A stretch of 64,000 bases of DNA from positions 118,596 to 182,595 of the forward strand of contig CAWBEW010000002.1 of assembly GCA_963788045.1 (NCBI GenBank). Direction: 5' to 3'. Each line of letters starts with the position of its first letter. The stretch's first letter is position 1. Under the pieces are notes generated by a model that saw only the letters and a list, made by a program, of their open reading frames with translations, was not told the origin of the DNA and ran no database searches. Shown piece by piece: positions 2,786 through 54,826 of this stretch. The DNA is from an uncultured bacterium. Its GTDB lineage: Bacteria; Babelota; Babeliae; Babelales; Vermiphilaceae. The position numbers were made by a program, and so were the translations under genes.

Positions 2786-3652
2786 TTATTCATGCGCCCC
2801 ATAATTTCGCAATAGTAGCTCCATATCAGAATTTTTCTTTTGTACACGCCATGCTGTTTGTAAAGGAGTGCCAACTTCCGGAGCAAAAAATTTGTTAATC
2901 TGTTCTTTGGCCCCATTTTTAAGCAATGTTTCAACCTGCGCAAGATCATTGTTTTCTACCGCAGCAATTAAAGGGGTTTTGCCTTGTTGCACACTGTTAA
3001 CATTGGCCCCTTTTTTTATGAGCGGCGCGATAAAATCAGAACTTTTTTTGCCCTTAACCACCTCCCATAATAATGTGGTCGCCAAATCGGTATTTAATGT
3101 GAGAAATCGCGACAATAATTTATTGGCGATGACCGGCTTATTTTCTTTGATCGCCTGATGAACACCTTTATAAAACCAGTCGGTAAAAATATCAGTGTGC
3201 GCCGAAAGCCAATCTGCAATACTGCCAACAAGATCTTCATAATTACCCTCAGCTGCAACATATAAGAGCGGTTTTTGATTGGCCACTTGCTCATTTTCAA
3301 TGAGGGTATTATAAAGATCAATGCGATGATTGCGGTTTTCGGTTTTGCGGGCGAGCTCTAATAATAATTTAATTTTATCAGTCACCTCTAACGGATTTTT
3401 CTGATCATCCAAAATCTGAGTCACAAGTCGCAATTGTTGCGATTGCGGTCTTTGTGCAATATATTCTGCTATTTTTTTTGTATTTCGCGCCATAAACAAC
3501 GGCGAAATCTGATTTAAAATGGTTTTATCAGCATTTAAGTCTGCCGATGCAACTTGAGCAGTTCCTGCTTTTGCAAGTAAACTAACACCCGCGCTCAGTA
3601 ACAACAAAAAACCTAATAATATCAGTATATCCAGATATTTTGGCTTCTTCAT
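2786..3652 (-). CDS. ankyrin-repeat protein with N-terminal signal/anchor
   Basis: MKKPKYLDILILLGFLLLL start preceded by AAGGA. C-terminal GKTPLIAAVENNDLAQVETLLKNGA ankyrin motif. Confidence 0.7.
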   Translation of the reverse strand: MKKPKYLDILILLGFLLLLSAGVSLLAKAGTAQVASADLNADKTILNQISPLFMARNTKKIAEYIAQRPQSQQLRLVTQILDDQKNPLEVTDKIKLLLELARKTENRNHRIDLYNTLIENEQVANQKPLLYVAAEGNYEDLVGSIADWLSAHTDIFTDWFYKGVHQAIKENKPVIANKLLSRFLTLNTDLATTLLWEVVKGKKSSDFIAPLIKKGANVNSVQQGKTPLIAAVENNDLAQVETLLKNGAKEQINKFFAPEVGTPLQTAWRVQKKNSDMELLLRNYGAHE

Positions 3653-3723
3653 ATAAATCCTTTTTTTATTCATTGAAGTTATCAAGAGAATAATCAAAAG
3701 GATAACGGTAACGCAAGCTTCAT

Positions 3724-6513: not shown

Positions 6514-6635
6514 CGAACGGGTTTGGTATTCTAAGCCCAAAAATCCAGATAATTTTCATCCAACCATTGTTTTTAGATCGGCAAATAAATTATATTTCTA
6601 TTATAATTAATGCATTTAAACTTAGGGGGGACCCA

Positions 6636-8285
6636 ATGGAAATGAAATCATTATTTTCACGTATTTTCTTAGTGGTATGTACCATGTGTGCAGCCACTAT
6701 TTTTATGGGCATGGTCAAAGAAAAATCATTGGCGCAACAATTTCTAGAAATTAGAAATCATTTGCCGGCGCAAGCGGCAGGAAATCCCCAAATCTATAAC
6801 ACACTTAATACCGTCCGCATTGCACTCGAACAATCGCAACCGGATCTTGCACTTGCAAGCAAAATATTGGAAACCATGCAAGGTCCTATTAAATCCATGA
6901 ATTTCGCCACTGATTTTGGTACTTTAAACGGGCAAGAGCTGATAAATGTTTACTTTGGTGATTTCATAAACCAACTCAATAAAAAAAGTGCTCAGCAGCC
7001 TACTGCTCCTTCAATAAAAAAAGAAGCTCCTGTTGAAAAAATTGAAAAGCCAAGCCAATCAGCGCTCGCTCAAGAGTTTGCGCAAATCTTAGAGAATCTC
7101 CCTAAAACTGGTGAAAATATTCCATTACTCAGACAACCATTAATGGCGGTGCAAAATTTACTTTTACAACCAAAACCGAATTTATCTGAAGTATTACAAG
7201 CATTGCAAAAAATAAAGCAAAATAATGCAATAAAAAATGCCAAATTTAATACCCCAATGTTAGCAGATGTGACTGGCGAGCAGCTTTTTTCTATTTACTT
7301 TGATGACTTTATTAAAAAAATCTCATTGCAATTACAAGCAGATCAACCTCGCAAGGCCGGAATACCATTTGGTCTTGTAAACAAAAATCAAACTTGTTTC
7401 ATGAATTCTTCTATTCAAGCGCTCGCGTCTTTAGACAAGGTAACTAATGTATTGCTCAAACATGCGTATGATGATTATTATCTGCCAAACAGTATATCAG
7501 CATTATACATACAACTTCTGAATACCATGCAAACAGAAAAGAAATCAGTTATTAATCCATTGCCGTTCTGCTTGCAGGGTTGGAAATTGTTTCCCGGTCA
7601 AGAAGGCCGCCAACAAGATGCGGCCGAATTTGTAGAACTTTTATTGGGACGGTTAACTGAAAGTAATGATATTAATCCTGCTCGAAGTCCTGCAAAAATT
7701 AATCAAGAACTGCTTTCTTTATTAGAGGTAAAAATTCTTGAACTCACGTATGAAAAAATCGGTGAAAAATATATACGCACCAAAGACAAAGCGTTTAACC
7801 CGCCGCTCATTACCCCAGCTTTAGCGATAAAGCCCGAATATAAATCACTTTTAGATTGCTTAAAAGGGACTTTTAATCCTTCCAATCCAGAAGGAGAAAC
7901 CAAGAATATAATTAGAGCCATAGATGGAACCAGCAATTATTTTATCTGCAGCATCGGCCGATTAGTAATTGACTATGTTACTAAAAAATACATTAAAATA
8001 AATCAACCAATCTCATTTGAACTTGATAATTTTAATATTTCTTCTCTAACCCTAAGACCAAGCAAAGTTCTACCCCTCTATCGCTGTAAAGCATTCATTG
8101 CTCATAGTGGAGCAGAAGTGGGACACTATATTGCCTATATCCGCATGGGCAACAACTGGTATATGTGTGATGACACGAATATAATCCCGGTTTCTACCAG
8201 TGAAGTGAACAAGTTTGCACAAACAGGAATCTTCAAAGCTGTAGTGGATTATACGCCGGTTATGTTCTTCTACGAGCAACAGTAA
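6636..8285 (+). CDS. secreted eukaryote-like ubiquitin-specific protease (USP/UCH, C19-type) with duplicated N-terminal module
   Basis: Start MEMKSLFSRIFLVVCTMCAA after AGGGGG. Cys box GLVNKNQTCFMNSSIQAL (Cys codon 7395-7397), QQDAAEFVELLL, His box GHYIAYIRMGNNWYMCDDTNI (His codon 8124-8126). Confidence 0.8.
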   Translation: MEMKSLFSRIFLVVCTMCAATIFMGMVKEKSLAQQFLEIRNHLPAQAAGNPQIYNTLNTVRIALEQSQPDLALASKILETMQGPIKSMNFATDFGTLNGQELINVYFGDFINQLNKKSAQQPTAPSIKKEAPVEKIEKPSQSALAQEFAQILENLPKTGENIPLLRQPLMAVQNLLLQPKPNLSEVLQALQKIKQNNAIKNAKFNTPMLADVTGEQLFSIYFDDFIKKISLQLQADQPRKAGIPFGLVNKNQTCFMNSSIQALASLDKVTNVLLKHAYDDYYLPNSISALYIQLLNTMQTEKKSVINPLPFCLQGWKLFPGQEGRQQDAAEFVELLLGRLTESNDINPARSPAKINQELLSLLEVKILELTYEKIGEKYIRTKDKAFNPPLITPALAIKPEYKSLLDCLKGTFNPSNPEGETKNIIRAIDGTSNYFICSIGRLVIDYVTKKYIKINQPISFELDNFNISSLTLRPSKVLPLYRCKAFIAHSGAEVGHYIAYIRMGNNWYMCDDTNIIPVSTSEVNKFAQTGIFKAVVDYTPVMFFYEQQ

Positions 8286-8340
8286 GTTGCGATAGAAGAT
8301 GATCAGAGTTTTACATTTATAGCTTTGGAGAGAAAGAACC

Positions 8341-9738
8341 ATGCATTTATCAAAACGAATAGCGTTGCTTTTTGGTATGGCAATATCAAGCATGATTGAT
8401 CCCATGGAGCTTCCACCAAAACAGCCAGCCTTACTAAAACTGATAAGTTCTGATGGAAAAGAAATTAAACTTCCGTTAGAAATCATAAAGCAAACAGGGT
8501 TTTATAGAGAAATTCTTCAAAAATACAAAGCTGCCAATTTTACTCTTTCAAGCAATATTTCAAGCCAAGTATTAACAGAAATTTCCCAATTCATGCAAAT
8601 GCTTTACCAGAACCAAGATCTTGGTCAAGCGGAGCTCATCAATAAGGCCGAAAAAGAGATTCGCATTCACGATAATTATGCATTTGCAGTTGCTGTCAAA
8701 TATTGGGATTTTGAACCTGGTATTGCTCTCATTTCAGAAAAATATAGAAAATCTGATTATTTTTTTCCGCAAACAGATTATGAATATTATATGAAACTTA
8801 TTGAAGAACTAAATCCGAAAGCATATGAAAAACTCAAAAAATGTAGATCTGTAAATCGTCAACCATGTTTGGTAATATCTCTTAGTAAAGAATCTGAAGG
8901 GGTTATTGGAGGAAGTGAACTATACCAAGGTTATCCTATTCTTGCGATAAATCCCGGAATAAAATTATGGAATGAAAAAAGTAAGAAAAACTATCTGAAA
9001 AAATATCTTGATTATTATAATGAAAATCCAATAGCTTCTATACTTTTAATCGATGAATTAAAAACTTATATGAGCATAATAAAAGATCTTGCACCTTCTT
9101 TATATGAAGCGATTGTAGCAGTCGATCCTACCGGGGCTGACCATATTAAAAGAGATGATTCAAATGGATCAAAAAATGCTTTTGTTGGTTTTTCAAAAAA
9201 AGATGGATTACCAGTGCTTTTTGTAGGATCTGAAACAAATCAGACTCCAAGAGAACAACTTCGGTTCACCATTGCGCATGAATTAGGGCATTATGTATTA
9301 GATCATATTTTTGAGCAATCAGCCAAAAAACATAAAATTTTAGAAAAAATTATTATAGATAAAAGAATTTTAAAAAAAGGAAAAGAAAAGGCACCATTTG
9401 AGATTAGTGGTCAGTTGCCCTTTGAAAAAAGTTTTCAGCTTGCCTTTTCTCGGACACAAGAATTTGAAGCCGATAGGTTTGCAGTGATAGAATTGGGAGT
9501 ATCAATCGATGATGCAATTGCCACGGTAAAAAGTTGGATAACTGAAGATGAGGAACATAAATTGAAAGTTCCTGAAAAAGAAACATTTAAAAGCACTCAC
9601 CCATTTTCGACGGCGCGCATACTACAATTTGAAGATCTTCGCCGTGAAGTTGAATTACATCAAGCACAAAAAGGACAACCAAAGCCAATCAATTGGAAAG
9701 CATTGGCTGCTCAATATTTGAAAAAAAAGGAGCTCTAA
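8341..9738 (+). CDS. Skp1/BTB-POZ-like N-terminal domain fused to M48-like zinc metalloprotease
   Basis: LLKLISSDGKEIKLPLEIIKQTGFYREIL ... FTLSSNISSQVLTEISQFM resembles the Skp1 N-terminus. HELGH at 9277-9291 and downstream EFEADRFA are typical of peptidase M48. Confidence 0.6.
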   Translation: MHLSKRIALLFGMAISSMIDPMELPPKQPALLKLISSDGKEIKLPLEIIKQTGFYREILQKYKAANFTLSSNISSQVLTEISQFMQMLYQNQDLGQAELINKAEKEIRIHDNYAFAVAVKYWDFEPGIALISEKYRKSDYFFPQTDYEYYMKLIEELNPKAYEKLKKCRSVNRQPCLVISLSKESEGVIGGSELYQGYPILAINPGIKLWNEKSKKNYLKKYLDYYNENPIASILLIDELKTYMSIIKDLAPSLYEAIVAVDPTGADHIKRDDSNGSKNAFVGFSKKDGLPVLFVGSETNQTPREQLRFTIAHELGHYVLDHIFEQSAKKHKILEKIIIDKRILKKGKEKAPFEISGQLPFEKSFQLAFSRTQEFEADRFAVIELGVSIDDAIATVKSWITEDEEHKLKVPEKETFKSTHPFSTARILQFEDLRREVELHQAQKGQPKPINWKALAAQYLKKKEL

Positions 9739-9776
9739 ACACATAACTTCAACGCGATTTTTTTCATAGAGTAAAA

Positions 9777-10340
9777 TCATGATCTGAGATCAAAATAGAC
9801 ATACCCATCTTCTTCAAGTGTTTTTACAAAGCCCATCTTTTTGTAAACCGCTTGTGCCGCATGGTTTTCAGAGCGGGTTACCAAAGTAATGATACTTGCA
9901 CCCTGTTTTTTGAGCGCATCAATGGCATAGCGCATAAGCTGTTGGGCATATCCTTTGCCGCGGAATTCCGGTTTTACATCCAAGAAAAGTACCGTCCCGA
10001 TAAAGAAATTTTTCATATAATAGGCAACGAAACCCACAAATTTATCTGCTTCGCGCAATACTTTTATTGATAGCTTGCCAAAATAGCGCGCATCATCTTT
10101 ATTGGGCGATCGGGTTTTGAGCATACTCTCCGCAGAATAATCTGGGCTTGAAAGCAACCAATATTTATCTTGCTTGAAAATATCCAAAATTTCCTGCGTA
10201 TCACGCGTCTCATTATAATCTTGAATGAGGCCAGTTATTTGCGCTGCTTCTTGCGGTTGAGGAAGATAATAATAAATTGTAAGTCCCCCAAATGAGAGGG
10301 CAAGAATCAATGCGGTTATTTTTATTAATTTTTTAGTCAT
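9777..10340 (-). CDS. GNAT family N-acetyltransferase with signal/anchor
   Basis: MTKKLIKITALILALSFGGL N-terminus. VKPEFRGKGYAQQLMRYAIDALKKQG acetyl-CoA-binding motif. Confidence 0.75.
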   Translation of the reverse strand: MTKKLIKITALILALSFGGLTIYYYLPQPQEAAQITGLIQDYNETRDTQEILDIFKQDKYWLLSSPDYSAESMLKTRSPNKDDARYFGKLSIKVLREADKFVGFVAYYMKNFFIGTVLFLDVKPEFRGKGYAQQLMRYAIDALKKQGASIITLVTRSENHAAQAVYKKMGFVKTLEEDGYVYFDLRS

Positions 10341-10360
10341 TTATATCTCCATAATAAGAT

Positions 10361-10401
10361 GATTCGATACACTCGCTCCGCGAGCACTCATCATGTGTAA
10401 C
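10361..10401. repeat. module A repeat copy
   Basis: GATTCGATAC-ACTCGCTCCGCGAGC-ACTCATCATGTGT. Compare GGTTCGATACGATTGC..GCAATCACTCACCATGTG at 38514 and 27608. Confidence 0.65.
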
Positions 10402-10404
10402 TCT

Positions 10405-10989
10405 TCATTTTTTTAGCGTCACCACAACAGTTTGGGGTGCAGCAGGCACTCGGCCTTCTTCTTCAATGAAACTGATTTCTGTTTCACCGGCAGCAATTTT
10501 TTCCCAAATATGTTTTGCCACCACATCATTTTTCTTAATCCATGCCCAAACTTTGCTTACACCTTGGACCTTTACCTCTTGAATAGCCGATTTCAAAAGT
10601 GCCGAAGCAAAGCCTTTGTTTCGCTGTTCTTTTTTGACCGCAATAAGACCTATATGGCAAACCCTGATAGATGGGCAAGTTGGCTCATACATCATAAAAC
10701 CAGCCACTTCATTGTTATCACGCACAACTTTAATAAGCGCAGTTCCATTTTTTTTATCAGTATTTGGAGAAAGGGTACGATTTATTAATGCTTTCTCTTC
10801 ATCAAAACAAAGAGCATATTCGTTAGAAATTAATGCGTCCTTATTCATCTTTATAATGGCTAATACCTGTGCGCGATCTCGATCATCAACATAGTCCATT
10901 ACTTTTTCTTGTGTAGTTACCAATTGTTCCATAGCATTTATACTGATTGGGCTTGCCATAATCAAAAGAAGCGCTACTTTAACATTCAT
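10405..10989 (-). CDS. GNAT family N-acetyltransferase with signal peptide
   Basis: Start at MNVKVALLLIMASPISINA. VKKEQRNKGFASALLKSAIQEVKVQG motif. Paralog of 9777-10340. Confidence 0.7.
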   Translation of the reverse strand: MNVKVALLLIMASPISINAMEQLVTTQEKVMDYVDDRDRAQVLAIIKMNKDALISNEYALCFDEEKALINRTLSPNTDKKNGTALIKVVRDNNEVAGFMMYEPTCPSIRVCHIGLIAVKKEQRNKGFASALLKSAIQEVKVQGVSKVWAWIKKNDVVAKHIWEKIAAGETEISFIEEEGRVPAAPQTVVVTLKK

Positions 10990-11743
10990 TATTATTCCTT
11001 TTAATAGCATATTCAATATTATACAGCATCAATCCATGCGCTGGAGCCGTCGGCAAAAGCTGCAATGGATTTTTTGCATCAAGCGCTTTTTGCAAATCAT
11101 CAATCTTCAAGGTATCACGCGAGGCGACTTCCAAGCAAGCGCCAACTATTCTACGGATCATATACCGTAAAAAGCCCGGGCCTTTGATTATAATCCGATA
11201 CCCTTTAACCTCGCTAATGAATTCAACTCCCACTTCATCAATCGTGCGAACCGTATTTTCATACTCATCGCCGGTGCAAAATGACCGAAAATCATGGGTG
11301 CCTACAAAAATAGAAAGAGCCTTTTTTAATTTTTCTAATTTGACCGGATAGCGGTAGTAATAGCCGTACCGCGCACTCATGGGCAACGGGCGCTCTTGAA
11401 AAAAATGATAGTGATATGTTTTTTGTTTTACATTCTTGCGCGGATTCCAATCAAGTGGAACTTCTTGAATGCTTCGCAAAAGAATAGACTCTGGCAAAAT
11501 ATTTTGCCACGCACTGCGCAAATCTTCTGGCTTAATGTTTAAATCGATACTAAAGGCCGCAGTTTGGCCAAGCGCATGGACTCCTGCATCAGTGCGTGAT
11601 GCTCCGGCAATAGTAATCTCTTTGCCAAATACCTCTCTAAACGTATCTTGCAAAACTCCTGCAATAGTAGGATGGCCGGGTTGCACTTGCCACCCATAAA
11701 AATCGGTGCCATCATAGGCGACTATGATCTTATATTTTTTCAT
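10979..11743 (-). CDS. truA: tRNA pseudouridine38-40 synthase TruA
   Basis: MKKYKIIVAYDGTDFYGWQVQPG and RTDAGVHALGQ catalytic motif. Confidence 0.9.
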   Translation of the reverse strand: MKKYKIIVAYDGTDFYGWQVQPGHPTIAGVLQDTFREVFGKEITIAGASRTDAGVHALGQTAAFSIDLNIKPEDLRSAWQNILPESILLRSIQEVPLDWNPRKNVKQKTYHYHFFQERPLPMSARYGYYYRYPVKLEKLKKALSIFVGTHDFRSFCTGDEYENTVRTIDEVGVEFISEVKGYRIIIKGPGFLRYMIRRIVGACLEVASRDTLKIDDLQKALDAKNPLQLLPTAPAHGLMLYNIEYAIKRNNNEC

Positions 11744-11748
11744 TAGTA

Positions 11749-12033
11749 TTAATTCTGATGCGCCTCTAATAATATATGAATACGATGGTCTTTATGAAAG
11801 GTATGATGCAATTTTGCTTCTACAAAATATGCAACGATTTGAGTTAGGACAGCAATTTTATGATCTTTCGCCTCATTCGCTTTTTTATAATCGTGAATTA
11901 TTTCGTCTTTCTTTTCAATTACTCTTTTCTGTGCCTCAATAATTTCGTCCAATTCTTTATGGCAATGATGATCATGCGCAAAAACGAAAGAAGATGATAC
12001 AAGTAATACGATAGACCAAAATAAACGGTTCAT
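11749..12033 (-). CDS. small secreted His-rich hypothetical protein
   Basis: MNRLFWSIVLLVSSSFVFA signal followed by HDHHCH. Coiled-coil-like remainder. Confidence 0.45.
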   Translation of the reverse strand: MNRLFWSIVLLVSSSFVFAHDHHCHKELDEIIEAQKRVIEKKDEIIHDYKKANEAKDHKIAVLTQIVAYFVEAKLHHTFHKDHRIHILLEAHQN

Positions 12034-12070
12034 TAGCGATCCTTTCAAAATATTGTTTTTTTAGTCTTGG

Positions 12071-12373
12071 TTATCGGGTAGCGATATATATTACCAAAAA
12101 TGCAGCTGCACCAGAAACAGCGCCCACACTAAATGATTTGACGAGTGTCTTAAAAGTATACCCATCTTTTCTTGCTTCTTCCAAACTTTCAGCGAGACGA
12201 TGATTTTCAGAACATTTACCCAGATAGGCCTCAACAAGTTCATGTTTGGTGGCATTTTTTGCAAATATTATTTCATGCTGATGCGGATAATGATCGGCAT
12301 TAATGGTATTTGAAACTAAAGAAAGTAGAAGTCCCAGAAAAATATGTTTGCCAAATTGCTTTATTATTAGCAT
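12071..12373 (-). CDS. small hypothetical protein with signal peptide and C-terminal TM helix
   Basis: 100 aa. GKHIFLGLLLSLVSNTINA signal-like. C-terminal SVGAVSGAAAFLVIYIA hydrophobic segment. Confidence 0.45.
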   Translation of the reverse strand: MLIIKQFGKHIFLGLLLSLVSNTINADHYPHQHEIIFAKNATKHELVEAYLGKCSENHRLAESLEEARKDGYTFKTLVKSFSVGAVSGAAAFLVIYIATR

Positions 12374-12389
12374 ATAAAACCTCGTTGAT

Positions 12390-12425
12390 AAAAAAATAAA
12401 CCCATTACTTTAGAATAATGGGTTT
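12390..12425 (-). terminator. Rho-independent terminator downstream of typA
   Basis: 10-bp stem AAACCCATTA / TAATGGGTTT (12398-12407, 12416-12425), followed on the minus strand by a T-rich tract (12390-12397). Confidence 0.6.
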
Positions 12426-12443
12426 ACTAATTTTTGCGAATAT

Positions 12444-12469
12444 ATCCTTCGACTCAGCTCAGGATGAAC
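12444..12469. repeat. short module B repeat (ATCCTTCGAC..CTCAGGATGA)
   Basis: ATCCTTCGACTCAGCTCAGGATGAAC. Same core as 27515-27537 and 33361-33383. Confidence 0.65.
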
Positions 12470-12476
12470 ATTGAAA

Positions 12477-14277
12477 TTATTTTCTTAATGCAGCGCGTAA
12501 AACTTTCTTACGCAAACGAATATGGTCCGGAGTCACCTCGATAAGTTCATCAGGGCGAATCCATTCCATACACATTTCAAGATCCATAGGCTTAGGCGGT
12601 GCAAGTTTAATTGCATCATCAGAGCCAGAAGCACGCATATTGGTAAGTTTCTTTTCTTTGCACGGATTCACATCCATATCATCATCACGGCTTGATTCAC
12701 CAATGATCATACCTTCATAAACTTCATCGCCAGGCTTAATAAAGAGCGTTCCGCGTTCTTGCAAGTTATCAAGTGCAAAACCGGTCGCAACCCCGTTTTC
12801 CATAGAAACAATCGCACCTTTATTACGGGTTTGAATATCACCTTTATATGGCTCATATCCATGGAAGCTAAAGTTCACAATACCGTTTCCACGCGTATCA
12901 GTTAAAAATTGGCTTCTAAATCCAAGCAATGCGCGAGATGGAACATGAAATTCTAAACGCATACGGCCATCATCATACATATGCATGCCGATCATTTGGG
13001 CTTTTCGGCGACCCATATTTTCCATCACCACGCCTTGGTTTTCTTGCGGAATATCAAGCAACACATATTCAATCGGTTCATTTTTAACACCGTTGATCGT
13101 TTTATAAATTACTTCAGGTGCAGAAAGTTGCAATTCAAAGCCTTCACGGCGCATATTTTCAACCAATACACCCAAGTGCAATTGTCCACGGCCTGAAACT
13201 TTGAATGATTCAGGAGATTCGGTCGGCTCAACACGCAATGCAACGTTGATGCGTAATTCTTTTTCTAAGCGATCTTTTAAATGGCGCGAGGTTAAAAATT
13301 TGCCATCTCTGCCATTAAAAGGAGAATCGTTAACCGAGAAATAAATCGAAACGGTCGGCTCATCAACTTTTACATACGGATGCGGCAATGGATACGCCAA
13401 CTTCACAAATAGTGGTCCCAATAGAAACTGGTTCATCAAAACCGGTCATGGCAACAATATCGCCAAAGCCTGCATCATCAGTTTCAACACGTTTAAGCCC
13501 AACGAATTTATAAATTTTGGTAATTCTTATCGGTTGCGCTTACTTTATCATCTTTGCAGCAAATTACTTGTTGGCCAACTTTCATGAACCGCTAAAAATA
13601 CGGCCAATAGCAATAGGCCCTAAGAAATCTGAGTGATCAAGACTGGTGACTAAAAATTGTAAATGATCAGCTTTTGCAGTTGGAGCAGGAACGTGTTTAA
13701 TGATCGCTTCAAAAAGCGGAGTCATATCGCCCGAGCGTGCATTCGTATCAGTCGAAACATAGCCAGATCTACCCGAACCATATAAATGAGGGAAAACCAA
13801 TTGGTTTTCATCAGCTGCTAAATCTAAGAATAAGATCTTGAATTGCAGCTTTCAGTGCGTTCAATATCAGCATCTTTACGATCAATTTTATTAATCAAAA
13901 CAATCGGCTTTAAATTTAATTGGAGCGCCTTTTGCAACACAAATCGCGTGCCGGGCAATACCCCTTCAGCAGCATCCACCAATAATAAAAATCCTTCAAC
14001 CATCTGCAGAGTACGTTCAACTTCGCCACCAAAATCACTGTGGCCGGGAGTATCAACGATATTAATTGCATAATCTTTATACACAACTACCGGTATTTTT
14101 AGCCAAAATGGTAATACCACGTTCACGCTCAAGATCATTGGAGTCCATGACTCGCTCAGCAGATTCTGCCTTAATGGTTCCTGATTGCTTAAGCAATTGA
14201 TCAACCAAGGTTGTTTTACCATGGTCAACGTGGGCAATAATAGCAATATTTCGAATATGTGAACGATCATTATTCAT
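12477..14277 (-). pseudogene. typA: translational GTPase TypA/BipA, 5' third broken by multiple frameshifts
   Basis: [20 protein letters not shown] and NKIDR motifs. I count at least 6 frame changes between about 13410 and 14100 (pieces 14077-14277, 13824-14270, 13582-13800 plus unlisted short pieces). The C-terminal 320 aa (12477-13439) are intact. Confidence 0.8.
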
Positions 14278-19304: not shown

Positions 19305-19880
19305 ATGAAGCATTATATATTACTCTTAACCGCTCTCTTTGCTATTCCCGGCTCACTGCCTGCTATGGAAAAAGAGGCAAAAATCCAGAGAATTAAGATT
19401 GATAAAAGTAAAGTGACTTACAACTATGAGGCAAGATCATTTTTAGATTCAGTGCCAGACAATCTTGCTGACTATGTAATTACCGCATTCTATCAGCAGT
19501 ACCAGAAAGTAGGGAAAGTTATATACCGCTCTCATTATGATCATGAAAATTGTGATCGAAATGACTTTAGCAAATGCCACGAATATCCGAAGTGCTGGGA
19601 AATTACTTATCTGCTTATTGAGCCGCAGTATCGCAATAACGGCATCGGGTTTGAACTCTTTAAACGATGCGTAGATGATGTGTGCAAAAAAAATTGCAAA
19701 ACCTTAATCTGGGATGCACGCCCTTTTGGCCAGGAGCGAGTATCCATTGATGAACTAATTGCCGTCTATGAAAAAATGATTAAAGAACTTAACAAGAAAG
19801 AACCTAAGAAGGCTGAACTACTCAAAGCTCAAAAAGATCCGACTGGTGACTATGCGGTGATGGCAATTGGCTTAACCTAA
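19305..19880 (+). CDS. GNAT family N-acetyltransferase with signal peptide
   Basis: GGAGG SD. MKHYILLLTALFAIPGSLPA signal. IEPQYRNNGIGFELFKRCVDDV motif. Confidence 0.65.
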   Translation: MKHYILLLTALFAIPGSLPAMEKEAKIQRIKIDKSKVTYNYEARSFLDSVPDNLADYVITAFYQQYQKVGKVIYRSHYDHENCDRNDFSKCHEYPKCWEITYLLIEPQYRNNGIGFELFKRCVDDVCKKNCKTLIWDARPFGQERVSIDELIAVYEKMIKELNKKEPKKAELLKAQKDPTGDYAVMAIGLT

Positions 19881-28911: not shown

Positions 28912-29619
28912 ATGATTATAAAGCGCATACAATTTTTGGTAATCGCAGTCTGTTTTAGCCACGGCGGGCAACTAAACATACAGGCAGATTCACAATTTGC
29001 GCCGTTCTCAACAAAACAAATGATTTTAAACGATATGCTTATAAAAGCAGCATCAAAAGGAAATAAAGCGTTAGTTGAGATACTGATTTGCCATGGAGCA
29101 CATATACATGCAAAAGATGATAATGGCGATACGTGCATAACTAAAGCAGCATTTTTTGGCCATGAGGCAATTGTATTGCTTTTGCTCAATAAAGGAGCTG
29201 ATAAAAACGCGGCCAACATATGGGGTTGCACTCCCCTTATATATGCTGCTCGAAATTGGAATAGTGAGGTTTTAAGGCTCTTACTTAAGAGTGGCGTTGA
29301 TATGGACAAAAAAGATTATAAGGGGCGTACCGCCCTTATTTTCGCTGCAATGAATGGCGATGAAGTAGCGGTGCAATCTTTACTTGAAGCTGATACCACT
29401 ATCAATATTCGCAACAATCTCGCCTGGGATATCTTAGATGCTCTCAGGTTTGCCATTGCATATTGGCACACAGAAGTAGTGAGACTTTTAATGCATCACA
29501 AAATTCCTGGCAAACAGGAATTTGCAATTTCTAAACAAGCCGCTGAAGACATCCTCAAAGAGCAGGTTAGTACTGAAATGAAAGAGTTGGTGAATGTTGA
29601 AATACGGCAAAGAAACTAG
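28912..29619 (+). CDS. ankyrin-repeat protein
   Basis: Repeats GNKALVEILICHGAHIHAKDDNGDT, GHEAIVLLLLNKGADKNAAN, LLLKSGVDMDKKDYKGRTALIFAAMNGDE. Confidence 0.8.
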   Translation: MIIKRIQFLVIAVCFSHGGQLNIQADSQFAPFSTKQMILNDMLIKAASKGNKALVEILICHGAHIHAKDDNGDTCITKAAFFGHEAIVLLLLNKGADKNAANIWGCTPLIYAARNWNSEVLRLLLKSGVDMDKKDYKGRTALIFAAMNGDEVAVQSLLEADTTINIRNNLAWDILDALRFAIAYWHTEVVRLLMHHKIPGKQEFAISKQAAEDILKEQVSTEMKELVNVEIRQRN

Positions 29620-33505: not shown

Positions 33506-33895
33506 TTACTCATCTACTTCTTTACTAAAAGGGCACGTTGATTGCCCGCAAATAGAACAAAGAACCATTCTTTTTTTCTTTTGAGCGCTATTTGCTGATA
33601 CCTGCGCTTTAATAAAATTATCAACCGAAGCATTGTTTTGAATGATGTTTTGCGCGATTGCAGCCATATCAGATTTTAAATCGGCAATACCATCATCCTC
33701 TTCTTGAGATTGAGGGTGTTGCTGGTGCTGATGATCGATTTGCTTATCATCATTTGAATACCACCGCTGCTTCTTTTGATCTTTCTTGGATTGAGTTTGC
33801 TGCTGGTCATGCTGCTGGCGCTGCTGCTGTTGTTGCATACCGGATGCGTTAACGCTAAAAAACATGCTTATCACTAAAATTATTATTTTATTCAT
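33506..33895 (-). CDS. secreted Gln-rich protein with C-terminal Cys cluster (paralog pair member)
   Basis: Signal MNKIIILVISMFFSVNA, MQQQQQRQQ, KKQRWYSNDDKQ, C-terminal CSICGQSTCP. Confidence 0.6.
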   Translation of the reverse strand: MNKIIILVISMFFSVNASGMQQQQQRQQHDQQQTQSKKDQKKQRWYSNDDKQIDHQHQQHPQSQEEDDGIADLKSDMAAIAQNIIQNNASVDNFIKAQVSANSAQKKKRMVLCSICGQSTCPFSKEVDE

Positions 33896-33908: not shown

Positions 33909-34313
33909 TTATACCTGCAATCCGCCACACAACGGGCAGCCGCAGAGCATAATATTACCATGAGCAATGCGATCTTTATCAGCTCCACAGACTTCTGCCG
34001 GTCTACCGCACGTCGGGCAAATCCGCTGATGTTCTTTGTGCTTTAATGTTTCAACCATAGTGGTAACTGCACCATGCTCTTGATTAATTTGATTCATGAT
34101 TACGGCAAGCATTGCATTCAAATCGGCAGTTTCAGGATCAGCTGCTGGCAGCTCGGGCTGCTTATCATCATTTGAATACCAGCGCGGTTTCTTTTGATTT
34201 TTCTGCTTTTCTTTTTGCTGGACTTGATCTGCTTGCTTTTGTGTTTGCTGCATCATGGCAGGCAAAGAGCCTGCCACGAGCATTGGCAATATTAGCAGTG
34301 CTATTTTATTCAT
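33909..34313 (-). CDS. secreted Gln-rich protein with C-terminal Cys cluster (paralog pair member)
   Basis: Signal MNKIALLILPMLVAGSLPA, KKPRWYSNDDKQ, C-terminal CPTCGRPAEVCG ... CGCPLCGG. Confidence 0.6.
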   Translation of the reverse strand: MNKIALLILPMLVAGSLPAMMQQTQKQADQVQQKEKQKNQKKPRWYSNDDKQPELPAADPETADLNAMLAVIMNQINQEHGAVTTMVETLKHKEHQRICPTCGRPAEVCGADKDRIAHGNIMLCGCPLCGGLQV

Positions 34314-34315
34314 GA

Positions 34316-37043
34316 TTAAAATACCTTATCAGGCAGAATATACGTGCCTTTCTTTTGACCTTCGGCAATCTTAAGATCAGCCAATGCCTGGTCAAAGTTA
34401 GCCTGAGTGATAAGCGTCTGGCGATTTCTCATAGCAAGTTGAGCCGCTTTATCAACCAGATTCTTAATATCGGCTGCGTTGCATCCTTCCATCGCTTTTG
34501 CAAGCACATCAAACGATATCGTGGTATCCACCGGCTTGCCTTTGCAATAGAATGCAAAGAGCGCCATACGTTTTTCATAGTTAGGCAATGCAACTTCAAT
34601 AATGGTGTCGAACCTACCCGCACGCATTAATGCAGGATCCAAGAGTGTTGGGGCATTGGTTGCCGCCATTACTATCACCGATTCGTCTTTATAGAATCCA
34701 TCCATTTGCGTGAGTAATTCGGTGATCGTTTGATTCGTTTCAGAAGTATCAGCGGTAGCACGGGATCCGATCGCATCAATTTCATCGATGAAGATAATCG
34801 TTTTACCAAAACGGTTACCTTCTGCTTTGGTACGCGCATCATTAAAGAGATCTCGCACACGCTGAGCCCCGACACCAACATATTTTTCTATAAATTCAGA
34901 ACCTTTTGCTTGAATAAACTCGCACCCGGTTTCTTCAGCAATTGCACGCGCAAGCGCCGTTTTACCGGTTCCTGGAGGGCCTGCTAATAAGACACCTTTT
35001 GGAAATGGAACTCCAAAAGCCGAATAGTTATATTCTCCCTTGATCATCTTGACCAAGTCTTCAATAGATGGATCAACCCCACCTACCAAACGCTTAAATC
35101 CTTTGACAGCATCTTTGCCGCCAAAGATTACATCAAGCGCATCCAACTGCTGTTGAATATCTTTATCACCTTTGATCATACGTTCTTTAAGAGTCTTTCT
35201 GATCGCTTCCACAAAATGCTTTTGCTTAAGGCTTTTAATACCCTCTTTTAACGCTGCTGCAGATGCCTTTTGAACCAATTCTTTTAAATCAGCCGGACTA
35301 AAATTATTAGCAGCTTCAGCTATTTTTCTCAGGTTAACATCAGGATCAAGCGGAATATTGGCAGTATAAAGCTTTAACACCTGCTCACGTTTATTAAGAT
35401 CAGGCAAGCCAATTTTGATAATCTTGCTGAATCTGCCCGGACGCAATAATGCTGGATCAATATTATTTGGGTGATTTGAAGCAGCCATCACGATGATAGA
35501 ATTATCTTCTTCAAATCCATCCATCTGGGTTAATAATTCAGTAATGGTCGCATCAAGAGAGTTACCTTGGCGCTTACCAATTGAATCAAGCTCATCAATA
35601 AAGATTATCGTTTTCTTTGACTCGCTATTTACTGCTTTTTGGCGTGCTTCTTTAAAAAGATCGCGGACCTTTTGAGCACCCGCGCCCACAAATTGGTCCA
35701 CAAATTCTGCAGCCGAAACTGCCATAAATTCGCAACCGGCCTCTTCTGAAAGCGCTCGCACTAATGAAGTCTTACCCGTTCCTGGAGGGCCAGAGAGCAA
35801 GATCCCTTTTGGCAAATCTAAGCCATACTTTTTATACACTTCATCATTCTTGATCTGTTTTACCAACTCAGTGATCTCATCAGGAACCTCACCAACTAGG
35901 CGCGCAAATCCCTTCTTTTCTTCTTTTTTTTGATTAAGAAGACTCAACATTACTTTTACCCGTACTGATACATCTTTATCAATACGCCCTTTAGCTTGAA
36001 GCACTTTTATGATTGCCTCAATCATATGTTTTTCAGTAATAAATGATGCTTGGTCTCGTTTAGCAAATATATGCGCATAGTTTATTAATTGTTTTAAATC
36101 CGCGGGAGTAAAGTTATAGGTAAATTGCGCAATCCTGCTTACATTCAGACGAGAATCAAAGGGAACGTTGCCCGCTTGATTAAATTTGATAAGCATTGCT
36201 TCCCGTTCTGCCGGGTTAGGCAATTGCATTTCAATTATTTTATCAAAACGGCCAGAACGTAAAAATGATTTTTCAAAATTTTCTGTGCTTGTACTTGCTC
36301 CGATGACAATTACTGAATCATCTTTAGCAAATCCATCCATCTCATTTAACAATGCGATCGCATCATTGGATAGTTTTTGATGTCGCAAAAACATCAAGAT
36401 CATCGAGAAATAAAACGGTTTTGCCATGTCTATTTGATTGAGCCTTCTTTCGTGCCGCTTCAAAAACTTTCTGGATATCTTCAGCGGTGATGCCTGCAGC
36501 ACTTTGATACATAAAGGGGCAGTCTAATTCTTCTGAAAGCGCCTTTGCTACACTCGTTTTACCGCTGCCAGTTTGCCCTATCAAAAAAATGCCGCGCGAT
36601 TGCTTGATAGCATATCGTGTATTTGTGCTGATGTTTGCATCTTTAAAATAACTTGCAAACTCGATAATCTCTTGCGGAACGGATCCTTCCAGAGCCGCAA
36701 AACCCTTGGGTGCCACTGGAACATTTACAACCGGGCTTGGATTTTGATTGTAGGGATTGCCAAATTGGTTATTCCTATTACCGCCTAAATTATTAGGATT
36801 ATAAGAATTATAGGGTTGATTATTATTCTGATACATTCCTGCATGCGCCGGCACTATCGCCATGATACTTGCAAGAAAAATAAACTTACCAAACCGTTCG
36901 GGTCGATGGAAGCCTGCAAGGCTGAATGGAGACCTCTCCACTCGGCTCCTTTCGGAGCCTCTATCGAGGCGAACGGAGGATGGAAAATATAGCTTCGAAG
37001 GGGATTTAAGTAGTGAATAATAATTCATGAGTAAAATCTCCAT
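34316..37043 (-). CDS. three-module classic-clade AAA+ ATPase (Cdc48/FtsH-like), interrupted by one frameshift
   Basis: ORFs 36363-37043 and 34316-36502 overlap by 140 nt. Walker A GQTGSGKT and Walker B LFLDDLD of module 1 are in the first ORF; its continuation SNDAIALLNEMDGF ... RSGRFD is in the second. Modules 2 and 3 are intact (GPPGTGKT, IFIDELD/IFIDEID, RPGRF/RAGRF). ATG abuts the upstream stop (TAAATG). Confidence 0.8.
36894..36976. repeat. module F palindromic element inside the 5' coding region of the AAA+ gene
   Basis: Reverse complement of 2701-2774, with different loop sequences that still self-pair. Translated as SSVRLDRGSERSRVERSPFSLAGFHRPER. Confidence 0.8.
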
Positions 37044-43298: not shown

Positions 43299-44138
43299 AT
43301 GAAGCATAGCATTCTTATGTTTGCGTTTTTAGTGTCACCATTACTAGCAGATGGCCCAGGGGATAGCAAAGATGCTGCCCTAAAATATTTACGCAGTTAC
43401 AGTGGCTTTAGAACATTTTTATTATCATACCCGCGCTCAGGAAACACCTGGCTTAGGTATATATGCGAAAGAACTACCCATTGTCCAACCTTTATGAAAG
43501 CAGGACTGGGCAAGAGAATAGATCAACCACTGGCATGGAGTTGCGGTTTTGATGATCTTGATTGGAGCAAGCCTCCTATTGAAAAAGCACATTTGCGCAG
43601 AGAGCTCAACGGCAGTAATAGTGCTCCTGGCAATAAGCTGATCGTACTCATACGAAATCCAAAAGAAGCACTCATGAGAACTCAACACAAACTTATTACT
43701 ATGGATATTCTTTTAGGCAAAGAAAAGGGATACGTTAAAGGTTCCGATTACTTTGACGCCATAAGCGTGTATGACTCTTGGGATGCGGATAAACGGCTCT
43801 TGGTCTATTATGAAAATTTACTCACCAATCCTGGCCCAGAGATAGCTCGCATTCTTAATTTTTTAAATGAGCCGCTCACCGCGCTGGACGATTTTATGAG
43901 AGACTATCAAAAACATAAAAAAATATGTTTGGATCTTTATAAAGATGGAGAATCAAAAGGCGAAGACCTTTTGTTTCATTCCAAAAAAACATATCCGGCA
44001 TATCGCCTTTTAGTTGACCAATGGATCGAACAGCTGTATCCGGTCTGGTGGAATAAATACCTCAAGCAATATTATGCAGAAGAAGTTCTTAATTATGAAG
44101 ACTCAAGGATCGTTACAATCGATTGGGAAAATGAGTAG
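43299..44138 (+). CDS. secreted sulfotransferase (paralog 1)
   Basis: Signal MKHSILMFAFLVSPLLA. LLSYPRSGNTWLRY (5'-PSB loop like PKSGTTW) and VLIRNPKEALMR (3'-PB like RNPKD). Confidence 0.7.
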   Translation: MKHSILMFAFLVSPLLADGPGDSKDAALKYLRSYSGFRTFLLSYPRSGNTWLRYICERTTHCPTFMKAGLGKRIDQPLAWSCGFDDLDWSKPPIEKAHLRRELNGSNSAPGNKLIVLIRNPKEALMRTQHKLITMDILLGKEKGYVKGSDYFDAISVYDSWDADKRLLVYYENLLTNPGPEIARILNFLNEPLTALDDFMRDYQKHKKICLDLYKDGESKGEDLLFHSKKTYPAYRLLVDQWIEQLYPVWWNKYLKQYYAEEVLNYEDSRIVTIDWENE

Positions 44139-44765: not shown

Positions 44766-44838
44766 CCAACTCTTGCAGTACAAATACTTTTATCATTAAT
44801 ATCATGAAAAAGTGACCCACTAAAAAAGGTGTTTTTTG

Positions 44839-45654
44839 ATGAAAGAACGCAAAACGTTCAAAAAGTACGACTTCTTATTTTTGCTTCTTGTTGCATCATC
44901 GGTAAGATGCCAATCTAAAGATCAGATGATTGAGTATCTGCGCATGTATAATGGTCCCCATACTTTCCTATTATCATATCCCCGCTCGGGAAACACCTGG
45001 TTACGCTATTGTTTAGAATATCTTACTCATTGCCCGAGTTTTATGAGAACAATGCTCAAAAATATGAGAGATCAGCCGCTTGCCTGGAGTGTTGGATTTG
45101 AAATTGATATGGCCAAGCCGCCCATTGAAAAGATTCATATTCGCACGCAATTAAATGATGCGAACACCCATTCGGATAATAAACTCATTCTTATTATTCG
45201 TAATCCAAAAGAAGCGATTACCAGAAATGAGCACAATCTTATTACGTTAGAAATTTTGCAGGGCAAAGAAAGTGTCTCACTGTATAATAGAGCACCCAAT
45301 TATTTTGATAACATTGCCATTTATGATGAATGGGATGCAAGCAAACGGCTCTTAGTATATTATGAAGATCTTTTAACAAAACCACGAAAAACATTGATTC
45401 GCATTCTGGAATTTTTGGACGAGCCGACCTCCGGCGTTCATGATTTTATGAAAACGTATAAAAAACATCAAAAAAAGTGCCTTCATGCGTATAAAGAAGG
45501 CGAATCAAATGGCGATCTTCTTTTTCATTCTAAAAATACCCCACCCGAATATCGCCGACTCATTGATGAATGGATCGAACAATTTTATCCAAAAATATGG
45601 AAAAAATATTTAAGGCATCGGTATTCAGAGAACGTACTTAACTATACGCCATGA
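44839..45654 (+). CDS. secreted sulfotransferase (paralog 2)
   Basis: LLSYPRSGNTWLRYCLEY and LIIRNPKEAITR. Collinear with 43299-44138 through to the C-terminus (DEWIEQFYP / DQWIEQLYP). Confidence 0.7.
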   Translation: MKERKTFKKYDFLFLLLVASSVRCQSKDQMIEYLRMYNGPHTFLLSYPRSGNTWLRYCLEYLTHCPSFMRTMLKNMRDQPLAWSVGFEIDMAKPPIEKIHIRTQLNDANTHSDNKLILIIRNPKEAITRNEHNLITLEILQGKESVSLYNRAPNYFDNIAIYDEWDASKRLLVYYEDLLTKPRKTLIRILEFLDEPTSGVHDFMKTYKKHQKKCLHAYKEGESNGDLLFHSKNTPPEYRRLIDEWIEQFYPKIWKKYLRHRYSENVLNYTP

Positions 45655-46794: not shown

Positions 46795-47439
46795 TCATTT
46801 ATTATGCGCTTCTAGAAGTTTCACAATTTCTTTATGTTTCATCTCTTTTGCATAATCAAGCGCCGTTTTATTATCCATCTTATTTACCGCATTCGCATCT
46901 GCTCCGGCTTCCAGTAGCACCTTCACTGCTTCTATATTGCCTTTCATCGCAGCTATCATGAGCGGGCTCCAATCGCCATAAATTTTTGGCGAACCATCAA
47001 GATGCGCACCATATTTTATTAATTCTTTAATAATAGCGGTGGGTGAACCAGAATTAACAGCATGCGAAAGGAGAGAGAGATTGCGCATAACTGCTGGTTG
47101 AAATTCATTGTTGCCATAAAGAAGTGGCGACTCAGTAAAATCATTAGGATTTGCGCCGGCTTTTAGCAAAATCTGTACCGCTTGCAAGCAACCACTATCA
47201 ATTGCATATCGCAAAACTGGGTTACCACCATGAGGTTGGTCCCGAAAAGCAACCGCATTTACATTTGCACCAGCTTTAATTTCCTTTTTGATTTTAGAAA
47301 TATCGGCTTTGAGAGCTGCTTTCATAAGTGCCGTTTCTCCCGGAATAAAATACATATTTTTGGAGAGATCTTTGCAGAGAGAGATATTACTCATAACAAG
47401 CAAAGTTATAGCGAAGAATTCGATTTTAGATGTGATCAT
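46795..47439 (-). CDS. ankyrin-repeat protein
   Basis: KKEIKAGANVNAV, AVQILLKAGANPND, GNIEAVKVLLEAGADANAVN, KHKEIVKLLEAH. Confidence 0.8.
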   Translation of the reverse strand: MITSKIEFFAITLLVMSNISLCKDLSKNMYFIPGETALMKAALKADISKIKKEIKAGANVNAVAFRDQPHGGNPVLRYAIDSGCLQAVQILLKAGANPNDFTESPLLYGNNEFQPAVMRNLSLLSHAVNSGSPTAIIKELIKYGAHLDGSPKIYGDWSPLMIAAMKGNIEAVKVLLEAGADANAVNKMDNKTALDYAKEMKHKEIVKLLEAHNK

Positions 47440-50759: not shown

Positions 50760-51599
50760 TCATTTTCTTTTTATTGCCTTATCAATTAGCTGAACAATCT
50801 CTTTGTGCCCATTACTTTTGGCAATCTCCAAAGCTGTAGCACCCATTATGTTTCTAATGCGAGGATCAGCACCGCTATCAAGAAGTAACTTGACAATATC
50901 TTTATGGCCTTTCCAAGAAGCTCTGCTCAAAGCAGTACAGGATGAGATGGTTGTTTCAACATTAGGATTAGCGCCCTTATCAAGAAGCAGCTTAACTATG
51001 TTTTTATGACCTCCCATAGAAGCTGCTATTAAAGCCGTACTACCGGTATCAGGGCCTCGGTGGGAATCAGCTTCAACATTAGGATCGGCACCCTTATCGA
51101 GAAGTAACTCTACCATATCTTTATTGCCTTTTTTAGCGGCCTCTACCAAAGCATAACCCATGCTAAGCCGAGCACCAGTATCACGTTTATCAAGTAGTAG
51201 CTTTACAATTTCTGTATGGCCTCCTTTAACAGCTTCTCTTAAAGCCGCATTGTCGCCCCATCCACATATAATATGAGGATGAGCTCCCTTATTAAGAAGC
51301 AACTCCACCATATCTTTATGCCCATTTCCACACGCATGCATTAATGCTGTCATTTCTGACTTTTGACCTATCTCATTAATGTTGGTTTTGGGATCATTCA
51401 AAGCGCTTTTCAAGTCCTCCAAATTACCTTTTTTAGCTGCTTCTATTAATTTTGAATCAGATTTACTTGCAAACAACTCACAAGCTTCTGCTATGTTCTG
51501 CCCCCGCTCAGCCCAATCATTCCCACGTGCAAAGCCTATGCCAACTTGTAGCAGCAATACTACACCCATTAATAATTTAATATTTTTTATAGATTTCAT
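50760..51599 (-). CDS. ankyrin-repeat protein with six near-consensus repeats
   Basis: GHKDMVELLLNKGAHPH, GHTEIVKLLLDKRD, GNKDMVELLLDKGADPN, GHKNIVKLLLDKGANPN, GHKDIVKLLLDSGADPR, GHKEIVQLI. Signal-like N-terminus. Confidence 0.85.
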   Translation of the reverse strand: MKSIKNIKLLMGVVLLLQVGIGFARGNDWAERGQNIAEACELFASKSDSKLIEAAKKGNLEDLKSALNDPKTNINEIGQKSEMTALMHACGNGHKDMVELLLNKGAHPHIICGWGDNAALREAVKGGHTEIVKLLLDKRDTGARLSMGYALVEAAKKGNKDMVELLLDKGADPNVEADSHRGPDTGSTALIAASMGGHKNIVKLLLDKGANPNVETTISSCTALSRASWKGHKDIVKLLLDSGADPRIRNIMGATALEIAKSNGHKEIVQLIDKAIKRK

Positions 51600-54507: not shown

Positions 54508-54826
54508 GAAAATCAAATCAACCTATGACAAGCTCATGGAATCAATGAGCGCTAAAGAAAAAAAAGAATACGAAAAAGAGCTTAAGGATTTTATCATTTC
54601 TGAGCTTATTTTAGCTGCCATGGAAGAAGATAATATCTCAGTAAGAAAATTGGCAAAACTTGCAGGAGTATCGCCTACTATTGTTCAAGAAATGCGGACA
54701 GGCGTCAAAAAAAGTTTTAATACTGATACTTTTTTCAAAGTACTTAAAGGCCTTGGCTACAATGTTTTTTTGGAACGAAACGGGCATATTACTCCTTTAG
54801 AAGTTGCTCATATGCATAAAAAATAA
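54500..54826 (+). CDS. XRE-family HTH antitoxin (HigA-like)
   Basis: 108 aa. NISVRKLAKLAGVSPTIVQEMRTG helix-turn-helix. Confidence 0.7.
   Translation: MTKKIKSTYDKLMESMSAKEKKEYEKELKDFIISELILAAMEEDNISVRKLAKLAGVSPTIVQEMRTGVKKSFNTDTFFKVLKGLGYNVFLERNGHITPLEVAHMHKK

Follow-up and report, generated by a model that had tools for sequence, protein, structure and literature searches.

A candidate host-directed USP-type deubiquitinase with family-specific N-terminal modules in a Dependentiae bacterium

Introduction

Few bacterial deubiquitinases of the ubiquitin-specific protease (USP; MEROPS C19) type have been studied, namely TssM of Burkholderia and SnUSP1-3 of Simkania negevensis. The Simkania enzymes are all reactive toward ubiquitin probes, and two of them, SnUSP1-2, also cut ubiquitin chains (PMC10643670). 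In Babela massiliensis, three secreted C19 ubiquitin hydrolases were reported from the genome annotation in 2015 (PMC4378268). Our literature search found no report of a USP-type deubiquitinase from the Dependentiae being tested. The gene described here lies at positions 6636..8285 of a 64,000-nucleotide stretch (the window) of contig CAWBEW010000002.1 from an uncultured bacterium, and its 549-aa product is referred to below as the USP protein. Judged from its sequence and structural model, the product is most likely a catalytically competent, eukaryote-derived C19 cysteine isopeptidase.

The reading that we favor, with good confidence, is that of a Sec-exported, host-directed deubiquitinase of a Dependentiae bacterium, where the export and its route, the ubiquitin substrate, and the host target are what we infer from sequence, model, and kinship. 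The original prediction, made from the letters of the DNA, regarded USP-type enzymes as rare in bacteria, and this agrees with the literature on described bacterial effectors (PMC10719079, PMC10643670). It also overrated the novelty of the protein, given the secreted hydrolases reported from Babela (PMC4378268). What is new is a small orthologous family occupying a conserved genomic slot and carrying, at the N-terminus, an orphan module whose copy number varies.

A predicted complete USP domain

By sequence and by model, the C-terminus of the open reading frame (ORF) at 6636..8285 is a complete USP/C19 domain that displays every defining feature open to such analysis. The coding sequence and its catalytic features are as follows.

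6636..8285 (+), complete coding sequence of 549 aa plus stop, with putative export signal, two orphan modules, and USP domain; from ORF reading, the identical protein found elsewhere, and the ends of orthologues
7365..8282 (+), USP (MEROPS C19) catalytic domain, aa 244-549, with Thumb, Palm, and presumably zinc-less Fingers in the model; from PF00443, PDB sequence matches, and Foldseek
7371-7424 (+), Cys box GLVNKNQTCFMNSSIQAL, aa 246-263; read from the sequence
7380..7382 (+), Asn249, at the oxyanion-hole residue position five residues upstream of Cys254; invariant in two family alignments
7395..7397 (+), predicted catalytic Cys254, codon TGT; pairs with the Cys-box cysteine of USP2 and is invariant in the family
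7611..7646 (+), QQD box QQDAAEFVELLL, aa 326-337, with Q326, D328, and E331 invariant; pairs with QQDAQEF of USP2
8121-8183 (+), His box GHYIAYIRMGNNWYMCDDTNI, aa 496-516, containing H497 and the D512-D513 pair; read from the sequence
8124..8129 (+), predicted catalytic His497 followed by the aromatic gatekeeper Tyr498; pairs with GHYTAY of USP2 and is invariant in the family
8169..8174 (+), Asp512, the putative third residue of the triad (D or N across the family), and next to it the invariant Asp513; mcDDtni pairs with tfNDssv of USP2

A full USP signature, with Cys, QQD, and His boxes in order, had been claimed for this region, and it is present close to where it was placed. The similarity is far beyond chance: the Pfam family PF00443 (UCH, equivalent to the USP family) matches at 91.2 bits (cut-off 23.9; E=1e-25), and profile positions 1-254 of 254 are aligned to aa 245-546, so that the profile search proposed at the time returns a strong, full-length hit. 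The features that define a USP are thus all found, comprising a profile score above threshold, a Cys box with its upstream Asn, and a His box with the gatekeeper and the Asp/Asn residue. The codon for the nucleophile had been correctly located as well, since TGT at 7395-7397 encodes Cys254.

The best PDB sequence matches are USP2, USP4, USP15, and USP21 (E ~4e-10), with USP12 and USP46 likewise among the closest. In the USP2 alignment, GLVNKNQTCFMNS stands opposite GLRNLGNTCFMNS, QQDAAEF opposite QQDAQEF, and GHYIAY...CDDTNI opposite GHYTAY...FNDSSV. In this way C254 and H497 coincide with the catalytic residues, and D512 with the third residue, an Asn or Asp. The catalytic positions were thereby aligned as anticipated, and they are conserved in the family. 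N249 is taken to be the oxyanion-hole residue by analogy with N218 and C223 of USP7.

An AlphaFold2 model built from a 14-sequence alignment has a mean predicted local distance difference test (pLDDT) score of 86.9. As had been proposed for structure prediction, the model superposes on solved USP domains: Foldseek matches it to USP35, USP4, USP18, USP46, USP2, and others at E ~1e-18, with target-normalised template modelling (TM) scores of 0.72-0.79 over 330-350 aligned columns against complete USP domains. In the model, a Thumb-Palm-Fingers fold is present. The presence of the Fingers alongside Thumb and Palm follows from the superposition of 330-350 columns on whole USP domains, and strands are predicted at aa 366-387 and 423-446, the positions expected for Fingers strands. 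The sequence shows no CxxC pairs in its Fingers region, which suggests that the Fingers probably bind no zinc.

A small family with a conserved catalytic pattern

Among 1.84 billion representative proteins, the family comprises ten relatives besides the query, of which nine are full-length and one is a 103-aa fragment (P0141). A word-indexed search of 5.8 billion proteins returned six relatives at 43-51% identity. A profile search added nothing closer, and its next matches, at E=1e-17 and weaker, include eukaryotic USPs. One family member is labelled 'ubiquitin carboxyl-terminal hydrolase' by JGI. The nine full-length relatives share the C-terminal USP domain and all end in ...FFYE(Q/R) except for the truncated P0005. 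Orthologues measure 548-558 aa, and they start and end at the same alignment positions as the USP protein.

Positions N249, C254, Q261, Q326, D328, E331, G496, H497, Y498, W508, C511, and D513 are invariant in the nine full-length members, and position 512 is D or N, with N in P0006, P0142, and P0143. This invariant catalytic pattern argues that the USP protein is an active enzyme rather than a pseudoenzyme. The N-terminal modules diverge faster than the enzyme, as within-family identity is 28-47% in the modules against 42-58% in the catalytic domain.

A conserved genomic slot

The gene order TsaB - RsmE - iPGM - USP - GNAT is common to the window and to three related assemblies (L001, L002, and L007). 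In L001 and L007, whose contigs reach further, it continues downstream with TruA, TypA, and a helix-turn-helix (HTH)/S24 regulator, as in the window. Across the three loci the flanking proteins are 62-97% identical to those of the window, against 41-43% for the USP protein. Such fast divergence beside conserved flanks is consistent with a host-interaction protein. The neighbors of the USP gene (iPGM, an M48 peptidase, two GNATs, and TruA) include metabolic and tRNA-modification genes. GC content is 37.0% in the USP gene, 42-43% in the housekeeping neighbors, and 38.5% in the window. No paralogue of the USP domain or of the module was found in the window, where the USP gene is single-copy. The shared gene order and the flanking bacterial genes indicate a true bacterial gene, and eukaryotic contamination was rejected because the order recurs in three related assemblies.

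Directly downstream of USP, at 8341-9738 (+), lies the gene for a 465-aa protein whose N-terminus is hydrophobic and which has a Peptidase_M48 domain (E=3.6e-15) with an HExxH motif in AHELGHY. This M48 gene is missing from the syntenic loci L001, L002, and L007 and has a very low GC content at third codon positions (22%). Residues 32-81 of its product give a sub-threshold match to the Pfam family Skp1_POZ (E=0.0064, 17.1 bits against 21.9), which was not accepted and is left as a lead. A BLASTP comparison with the N-terminus of human SKP1 gave E=0.003 and 38% identity over 29 aa, and the Skp1-like region has no PDB sequence match. The M48 gene may be a recent insertion and possibly encodes a second protein related to the ubiquitin system.

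Further downstream, typA (bipA) at 12477-14276 (-) is broken: only its C-terminal 320 aa form an ORF, and several frameshifts and stops interrupt the GTPase part. L001 and L007 carry an intact 599-aa TypA that is 92% identical. The broken copy in the window is explained by assembly indels or is a genuine pseudogene. The L002 contig (CAYMRF010000014.1) is labelled 'uncultured Pseudomonadota bacterium', yet it shares the window's gene order and flanking proteins of 62-81% identity; the label is probably wrong.

The hydrophobic N-terminus

Upstream and N-terminal features of the USP gene are the following.

6578..6607 (+), promoter-like site TCGGCA-18-TATAAT, 29 nt 5' of the ATG; 10/12 consensus positions, weak
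6624..6630 (+), Shine-Dalgarno-like AGGGGGG, 5 nt ahead of the start codon; read from the sequence
6636..6716 (+), N-terminal hydrophobic segment, aa 1-27, MEMKSLFSRIFLVVCTMCAATIFMGMV, a putative Sec signal peptide or signal anchor; from hydropathy, conservation, and model

The mechanically called ORF opens at TTG 6567, and ATG 6636 is the likely start. The longer form was rejected because the Shine-Dalgarno-like motif, the N-termini of the orthologues, and the promoter-like site all favor the ATG; the last of these is a weak argument, resting on the position of the site downstream of TTG 6567. Promoter-like sites are rarer in this region than in its shuffled versions, and TCGGCA-18-TATAAT is a consensus match and no more. 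Gene callers chose the same start on a separately assembled 3.65-kb Logan contig, which encodes an identical protein.

The hydrophobic N-terminus is kept in all family members, and A20 and M26 are invariant in a seven-sequence alignment. Over aa 5-27 the mean Kyte-Doolittle hydropathy reaches up to 2.1 over 19 residues, and AlphaFold2 models aa 2-26 as a single helix. The basic residues K4 and R9 precede the hydrophobic run, an arrangement that suits an N-terminus held inside with the remainder exported. The segment originally called a signal peptide is borne out as a conserved hydrophobic segment at aa 5-27, which, with no clear AxA site behind it, may be cleaved or may be an uncleaved anchor. 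Secretion of the USP protein is suggested by this conserved N-terminus, in which a cleaved signal peptide and a signal anchor look alike.

A duplicated orphan module

Between the hydrophobic segment and the enzyme lie two copies of a helical module.

6717..7040 (+), orphan module copy 1, aa 28-135, with a disordered linker at ~aa 121-140; from self-alignment and model
7041..7364 (+), orphan module copy 2, aa 136-243, with the same predicted order of secondary structure as copy 1; from self-alignment and model

An internal duplication of an approximately 85-aa module had been noticed at the outset, and self-alignment bears this out: aa 28-134 and aa 135-242 are 30% identical (E=9e-11). Each unit spans ~107 aa with its linker, around a structured core of ~85-90 aa that is predicted to fold into four or five helices with a beta-hairpin and one long helix (pLDDT 80-93). 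In copy 1, pLDDT is 85-93 in the core and <50 in the linker. An exhaustive HMMER search of the 1.84 billion representatives with the module region returned ten proteins, all of them members of the USP family. As nothing outside the family was returned and Pfam, PDB, and viral structures offer no counterpart, the module is a family-specific orphan. Pfam matches of the modules to SWIRM (E=0.047) and NolB (E=0.068) were dismissed as noise. Copy number varies from one in three members and two in most to four in P0002. The modules most likely act in targeting, binding, or spacing between the export signal and the enzyme.

The source organism

The closest named relatives of MutL in the window belong to Candidatus Dependentiae and Candidatus Babeliales (51-54% identity), and metagenomic proteins reach 73%. 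Housekeeping genes of the window fall below many NCBIfam equivalog cut-offs, as expected of a deep lineage. The window encodes at least five ankyrin-repeat proteins confirmed by Pfam, along with two Sulfotransfer_1 proteins, and by a crude hydropathy test 29 of its 54 ORFs have hydrophobic N-termini. For comparison, signal peptides occur on 44% of Chromulinavorax coding sequences (PMC6561590). From the MutL similarity, the ankyrin proteins, and the many export signals, we conclude that the source of the window is a bacterium of the Dependentiae (TM6). The members of this phylum in culture parasitise protists and are obligately intracellular (PMC4378268, PMC6561590). The host association that an effector presupposes is, by the same kinship and by the richness in ankyrin repeats and export signals, likely for this bacterium as well.

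Proposed role and alternative explanations

In the role that we propose, the conserved hydrophobic N-terminus would carry the USP protein through the Sec pathway, and exit from the cell would follow by type II secretion or in outer-membrane vesicles, as proposed for other Dependentiae. [quoted passage not shown] The family-specific helical modules (two here, 1-4 in the family) would serve as a targeting, binding, or spacer region. The Thumb-Palm-Fingers domain, with Cys254, His497, Asp512, and the Asn249 oxyanion hole, would then cut ubiquitin off host proteins, or off bacterial or vacuolar surfaces that carry it, and so dampen degradation or autophagy that depends on ubiquitin in the protist host.

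Several observations weigh against this role. The hydrophobic run is long (~18-22 residues, ~18 of them after R9) and is followed by no clear AxA site, so the protein could remain anchored in the bacterial inner membrane. The window contains no secretion-system genes. The N-terminal modules have no credible Pfam match, and a separate model of the module found no match among PDB structures (best E=0.11) or among viral structures in BFVD (best E=0.26). Lastly, the lifestyle and host of the source bacterium are read from its relatives. The secreted, host-targeting effector of the original prediction is nevertheless supported, and it fits a Dependentiae/Babeliales-like bacterium with ankyrin proteins and abundant hydrophobic N-termini; its secretion is the part that is less firm, as the N-terminus may be a membrane anchor.

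The most serious alternative, which we hold to be possible but clearly the less likely, concerns the place of the enzyme rather than its activity. The N-terminal helix would be an uncleaved signal anchor that keeps the USP domain attached to the envelope of the bacterium, to outer-membrane vesicles, or, at a later stage, to a membrane of the host, where it would strip ubiquitin from the bacterial or vacuolar surface as a shield against xenophagy instead of acting as a soluble effector. The length of the hydrophobic stretch, the single modelled helix, and the lack of a clear signal-peptidase site all suit an anchor, and three positions ahead of the invariant A20 the family alignment often shows a bulky residue (F or I). 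P0140 starts with what resembles, by eye, a signal peptide, and another hydrophobic stretch comes after it. The USPs of Simkania have hydrophobic regions as well, which are believed to hold them on membranes (PMC10643670), and a preprint that gives prominence to TssM proposes that dedicated bacterial esterases reverse lipopolysaccharide ubiquitylation (PMC10371091). Against this, an enzyme anchored in the inner membrane of a two-membrane cell would sit in the periplasm and out of reach of host ubiquitin, unless released in vesicles. Other exported proteins of the window also have shorter, classical signals, yet those of Babela are described as 'somewhat atypical' (PMC4378268). A change of substrate rather than of place, with specificity for a host ubiquitin-like modifier (NEDD8, SUMO-like, or ISG15-like) in lieu of ubiquitin, seems improbable. 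Some USP-fold proteins do act on such modifiers, as USPL1 cleaves SUMO (PMC10719079) and SnUSP2 also reacts with an ISG15 probe (PMC10643670), and USP18, which is directed at ISG15, is among the best structural matches. However, Glu331 of the QQD box is invariant, and it may correspond to a highly conserved USP glutamate that is important for binding according to the TssM paper (PMC10719079). Moreover, USP18 is one of many equally good structural matches, and the closest sequence matches (USP2, 4, 15, 21, 12, and 46) are ubiquitin-specific.

Ubiquitin-like conjugation systems with dedicated deconjugating proteases exist in bacteria. The premise of the original prediction that bacteria have no ubiquitin overlooked them, and the enzyme might in principle serve such a system, or an anti-phage system, inside the bacterium. 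We regard this as very improbable. A tblastn search with ubiquitin detected no ubiquitin-like ORF in the window, and the USP protein has no match to a PADLOC defence family at E<=0.001, in a scan that covered six proteins (the USP protein, its three downstream neighbors, and two AAA ORFs at 34-37 kb). The neighbors (iPGM, the M48 peptidase, the GNATs, and TruA) include neither an E1 nor an E2, and together these results make a bacterial ubiquitin-like role unlikely. The N-terminal export signal also points away from the cytoplasm, and the nearest relatives beyond the family include eukaryotic USPs. These same eukaryotic matches, along with signs of misassembly or decay in the window such as the frameshifted typA, could be taken to mean that a host gene was misbinned or misassembled into a bacterial contig, or that the gene is a decayed, inactive remnant. 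The chance of such an artefact is next to negligible. The gene is flanked by bacterial housekeeping genes on a 540-kb contig, its order is repeated in three other assemblies, and the artefact was rejected on this synteny. In addition, the gene is one uninterrupted frame with a Shine-Dalgarno-like motif and a GC content near that of the window, an identical protein occurs on another assembled contig, and the catalytic residues are invariant in the family.

Returning to the exported, host-directed deubiquitinase, a broader proposal joins the module to the slot and is rather unlikely to hold in full. The ~90-residue module would be a new fold restricted to the USP family that binds a host target, a membrane, or ubiquitin chains, and its copy number (1-4) would set substrate or linkage specificity. 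The iPGM-TruA slot would in turn be a small, variable host-interaction 'islet', which here has also gained an M48 metalloprotease with a possible Skp1-like N-terminus.

Other genes of interest in the window

Seven ORFs encode ankyrin-repeat proteins, five confirmed by Pfam and two recognized by eye, most with signal-like N-termini: 2786-3697(-), 28912-29619(+), 46795-47439(-), 50760-51599(-), 52237-52905(-), 52924-53571(-), and 56524-57207(-). The paralogues at 52924-53571 and 56524-57207 bracket ~3 kb of short ORFs. Two further paralogues, at 43299-44138 (+) and 44836-45654 (+), combine hydrophobic N-termini with a Sulfotransfer_1 domain (E ~1e-11). Sulfotransfer_1 is known mainly from eukaryotes, and both proteins are candidates for further host-directed enzymes. 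Three GNAT acetyltransferases, at 9777-10340 (-), 10405-11016 (-), and 19305-19880 (+), start with a hydrophobic stretch that resembles a signal; identity of the first is 81-83% in every syntenic locus. It is unusual for acetyltransferases to be exported, and these could also be host-directed. Adjacent small paralogues at 33506-33895 (-) and 33909-34313 (-) have N-termini that resemble signals, long stretches rich in Gln, and Cys motifs at the C-terminus.

The gene at 34316-36502 (-) encodes a 728-aa protein with two AAA+ domains, which matches FtsH, proteasome-ATPase, and CDC48 models, lacks a protease domain, and matches the defence ATPase IetA in PADLOC (E=4e-85). Directly upstream of this gene and overlapping it, a 226-aa ORF at 36363-37043 (-) encodes half of another AAA domain, and a frameshift may divide a single longer gene into these two. 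A mobile-element-like stretch comprises 54124-54826 (+), 55106-56533 (+), and 57541-58642 (+), with tRNAs at 58992-59315 (-). It includes an overlapping pair of small ORFs that resembles a toxin-antitoxin pair, with fragmentary ORFs nearby, and a serine-recombinase-like N-terminus recognized by eye, MKAILIARVSTEEQ, beside tRNA-Glu and tRNA-Lys. The ORFs at 54124-58642 next to these tRNAs look like the remnant of a mobile element.

Comparison with known systems

The closest described counterparts are the C19 hydrolases of Babela massiliensis, which share with the USP protein the apparent phylum, the C19/USP family, and a predicted N-terminal export signal. The role proposed for them is also the same, namely interference with host ubiquitin after Sec export and type II secretion (PMC4378268). 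The comparison is by description, and the family studied here has an N-terminal module of its own in one to four copies. USPs from a Babeliales assembly (L003) are distant, scoring 63 bits against 200-350 bits inside the family, and in these the USP domain directly follows a short N-terminus that resembles a signal peptide by eye, without the module. L003 carries two adjacent USP genes, at 7935-10487 (+) and 10490-12580 (+), both with such N-termini. The 850-aa product has two USP domains, the second of which has Arg in place of the catalytic Cys (NVGNTRFLNAS) and is probably inactive.

Like the USP protein, SnUSP1-3 of Simkania negevensis are canonical USPs with all active-site residues, an aromatic gatekeeper, and hydrophobic regions outside the catalytic domain (PMC10643670). 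Simkania is also intracellular in amoebae and appears to have acquired SnUSP1-3 from eukaryotes (PMC10643670). It differs in belonging to the Chlamydiota and in having secretion systems of types III and IV, and the likeness to the USP protein is drawn from descriptions. Burkholderia TssM is likewise of the USP type with a Cys-His-Asp triad and is exported by type II secretion, not by types III, IV, or VI (PMC10719079). In contrast, TssM is fingerless, whereas the USP protein can be aligned with whole, Finger-bearing USP domains and has a predicted helical N-terminal region. A TssM-type fingerless enzyme was rejected for these reasons, that is, the ~330-350 columns on complete domains, the Fingers strands, and the helical N-terminus; the model has Fingers and no immunoglobulin-like domain.

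Eukaryotic USPs (USP2, USP4/15, USP21, USP12/46, and USP35) have the same fold and catalytic motifs and provide the best sequence and structure matches, at 17-22% identity in structural alignments. Unlike them, the USP protein has no DUSP, UBL, or zf-UBP accessory domains and no zinc-binding CxxC pairs in its Fingers, and it carries a putative bacterial export signal and orphan N-terminal modules. Being a canonical, Finger-bearing USP of simple architecture, it would be easy to express, and it could address how such parasites handle host ubiquitin, which specificity the enzyme has, and what role the orphan repeat module plays. To the picture drawn from Babela in 2015 it adds a member and an unusual N-terminal module, and that picture is otherwise unchanged.

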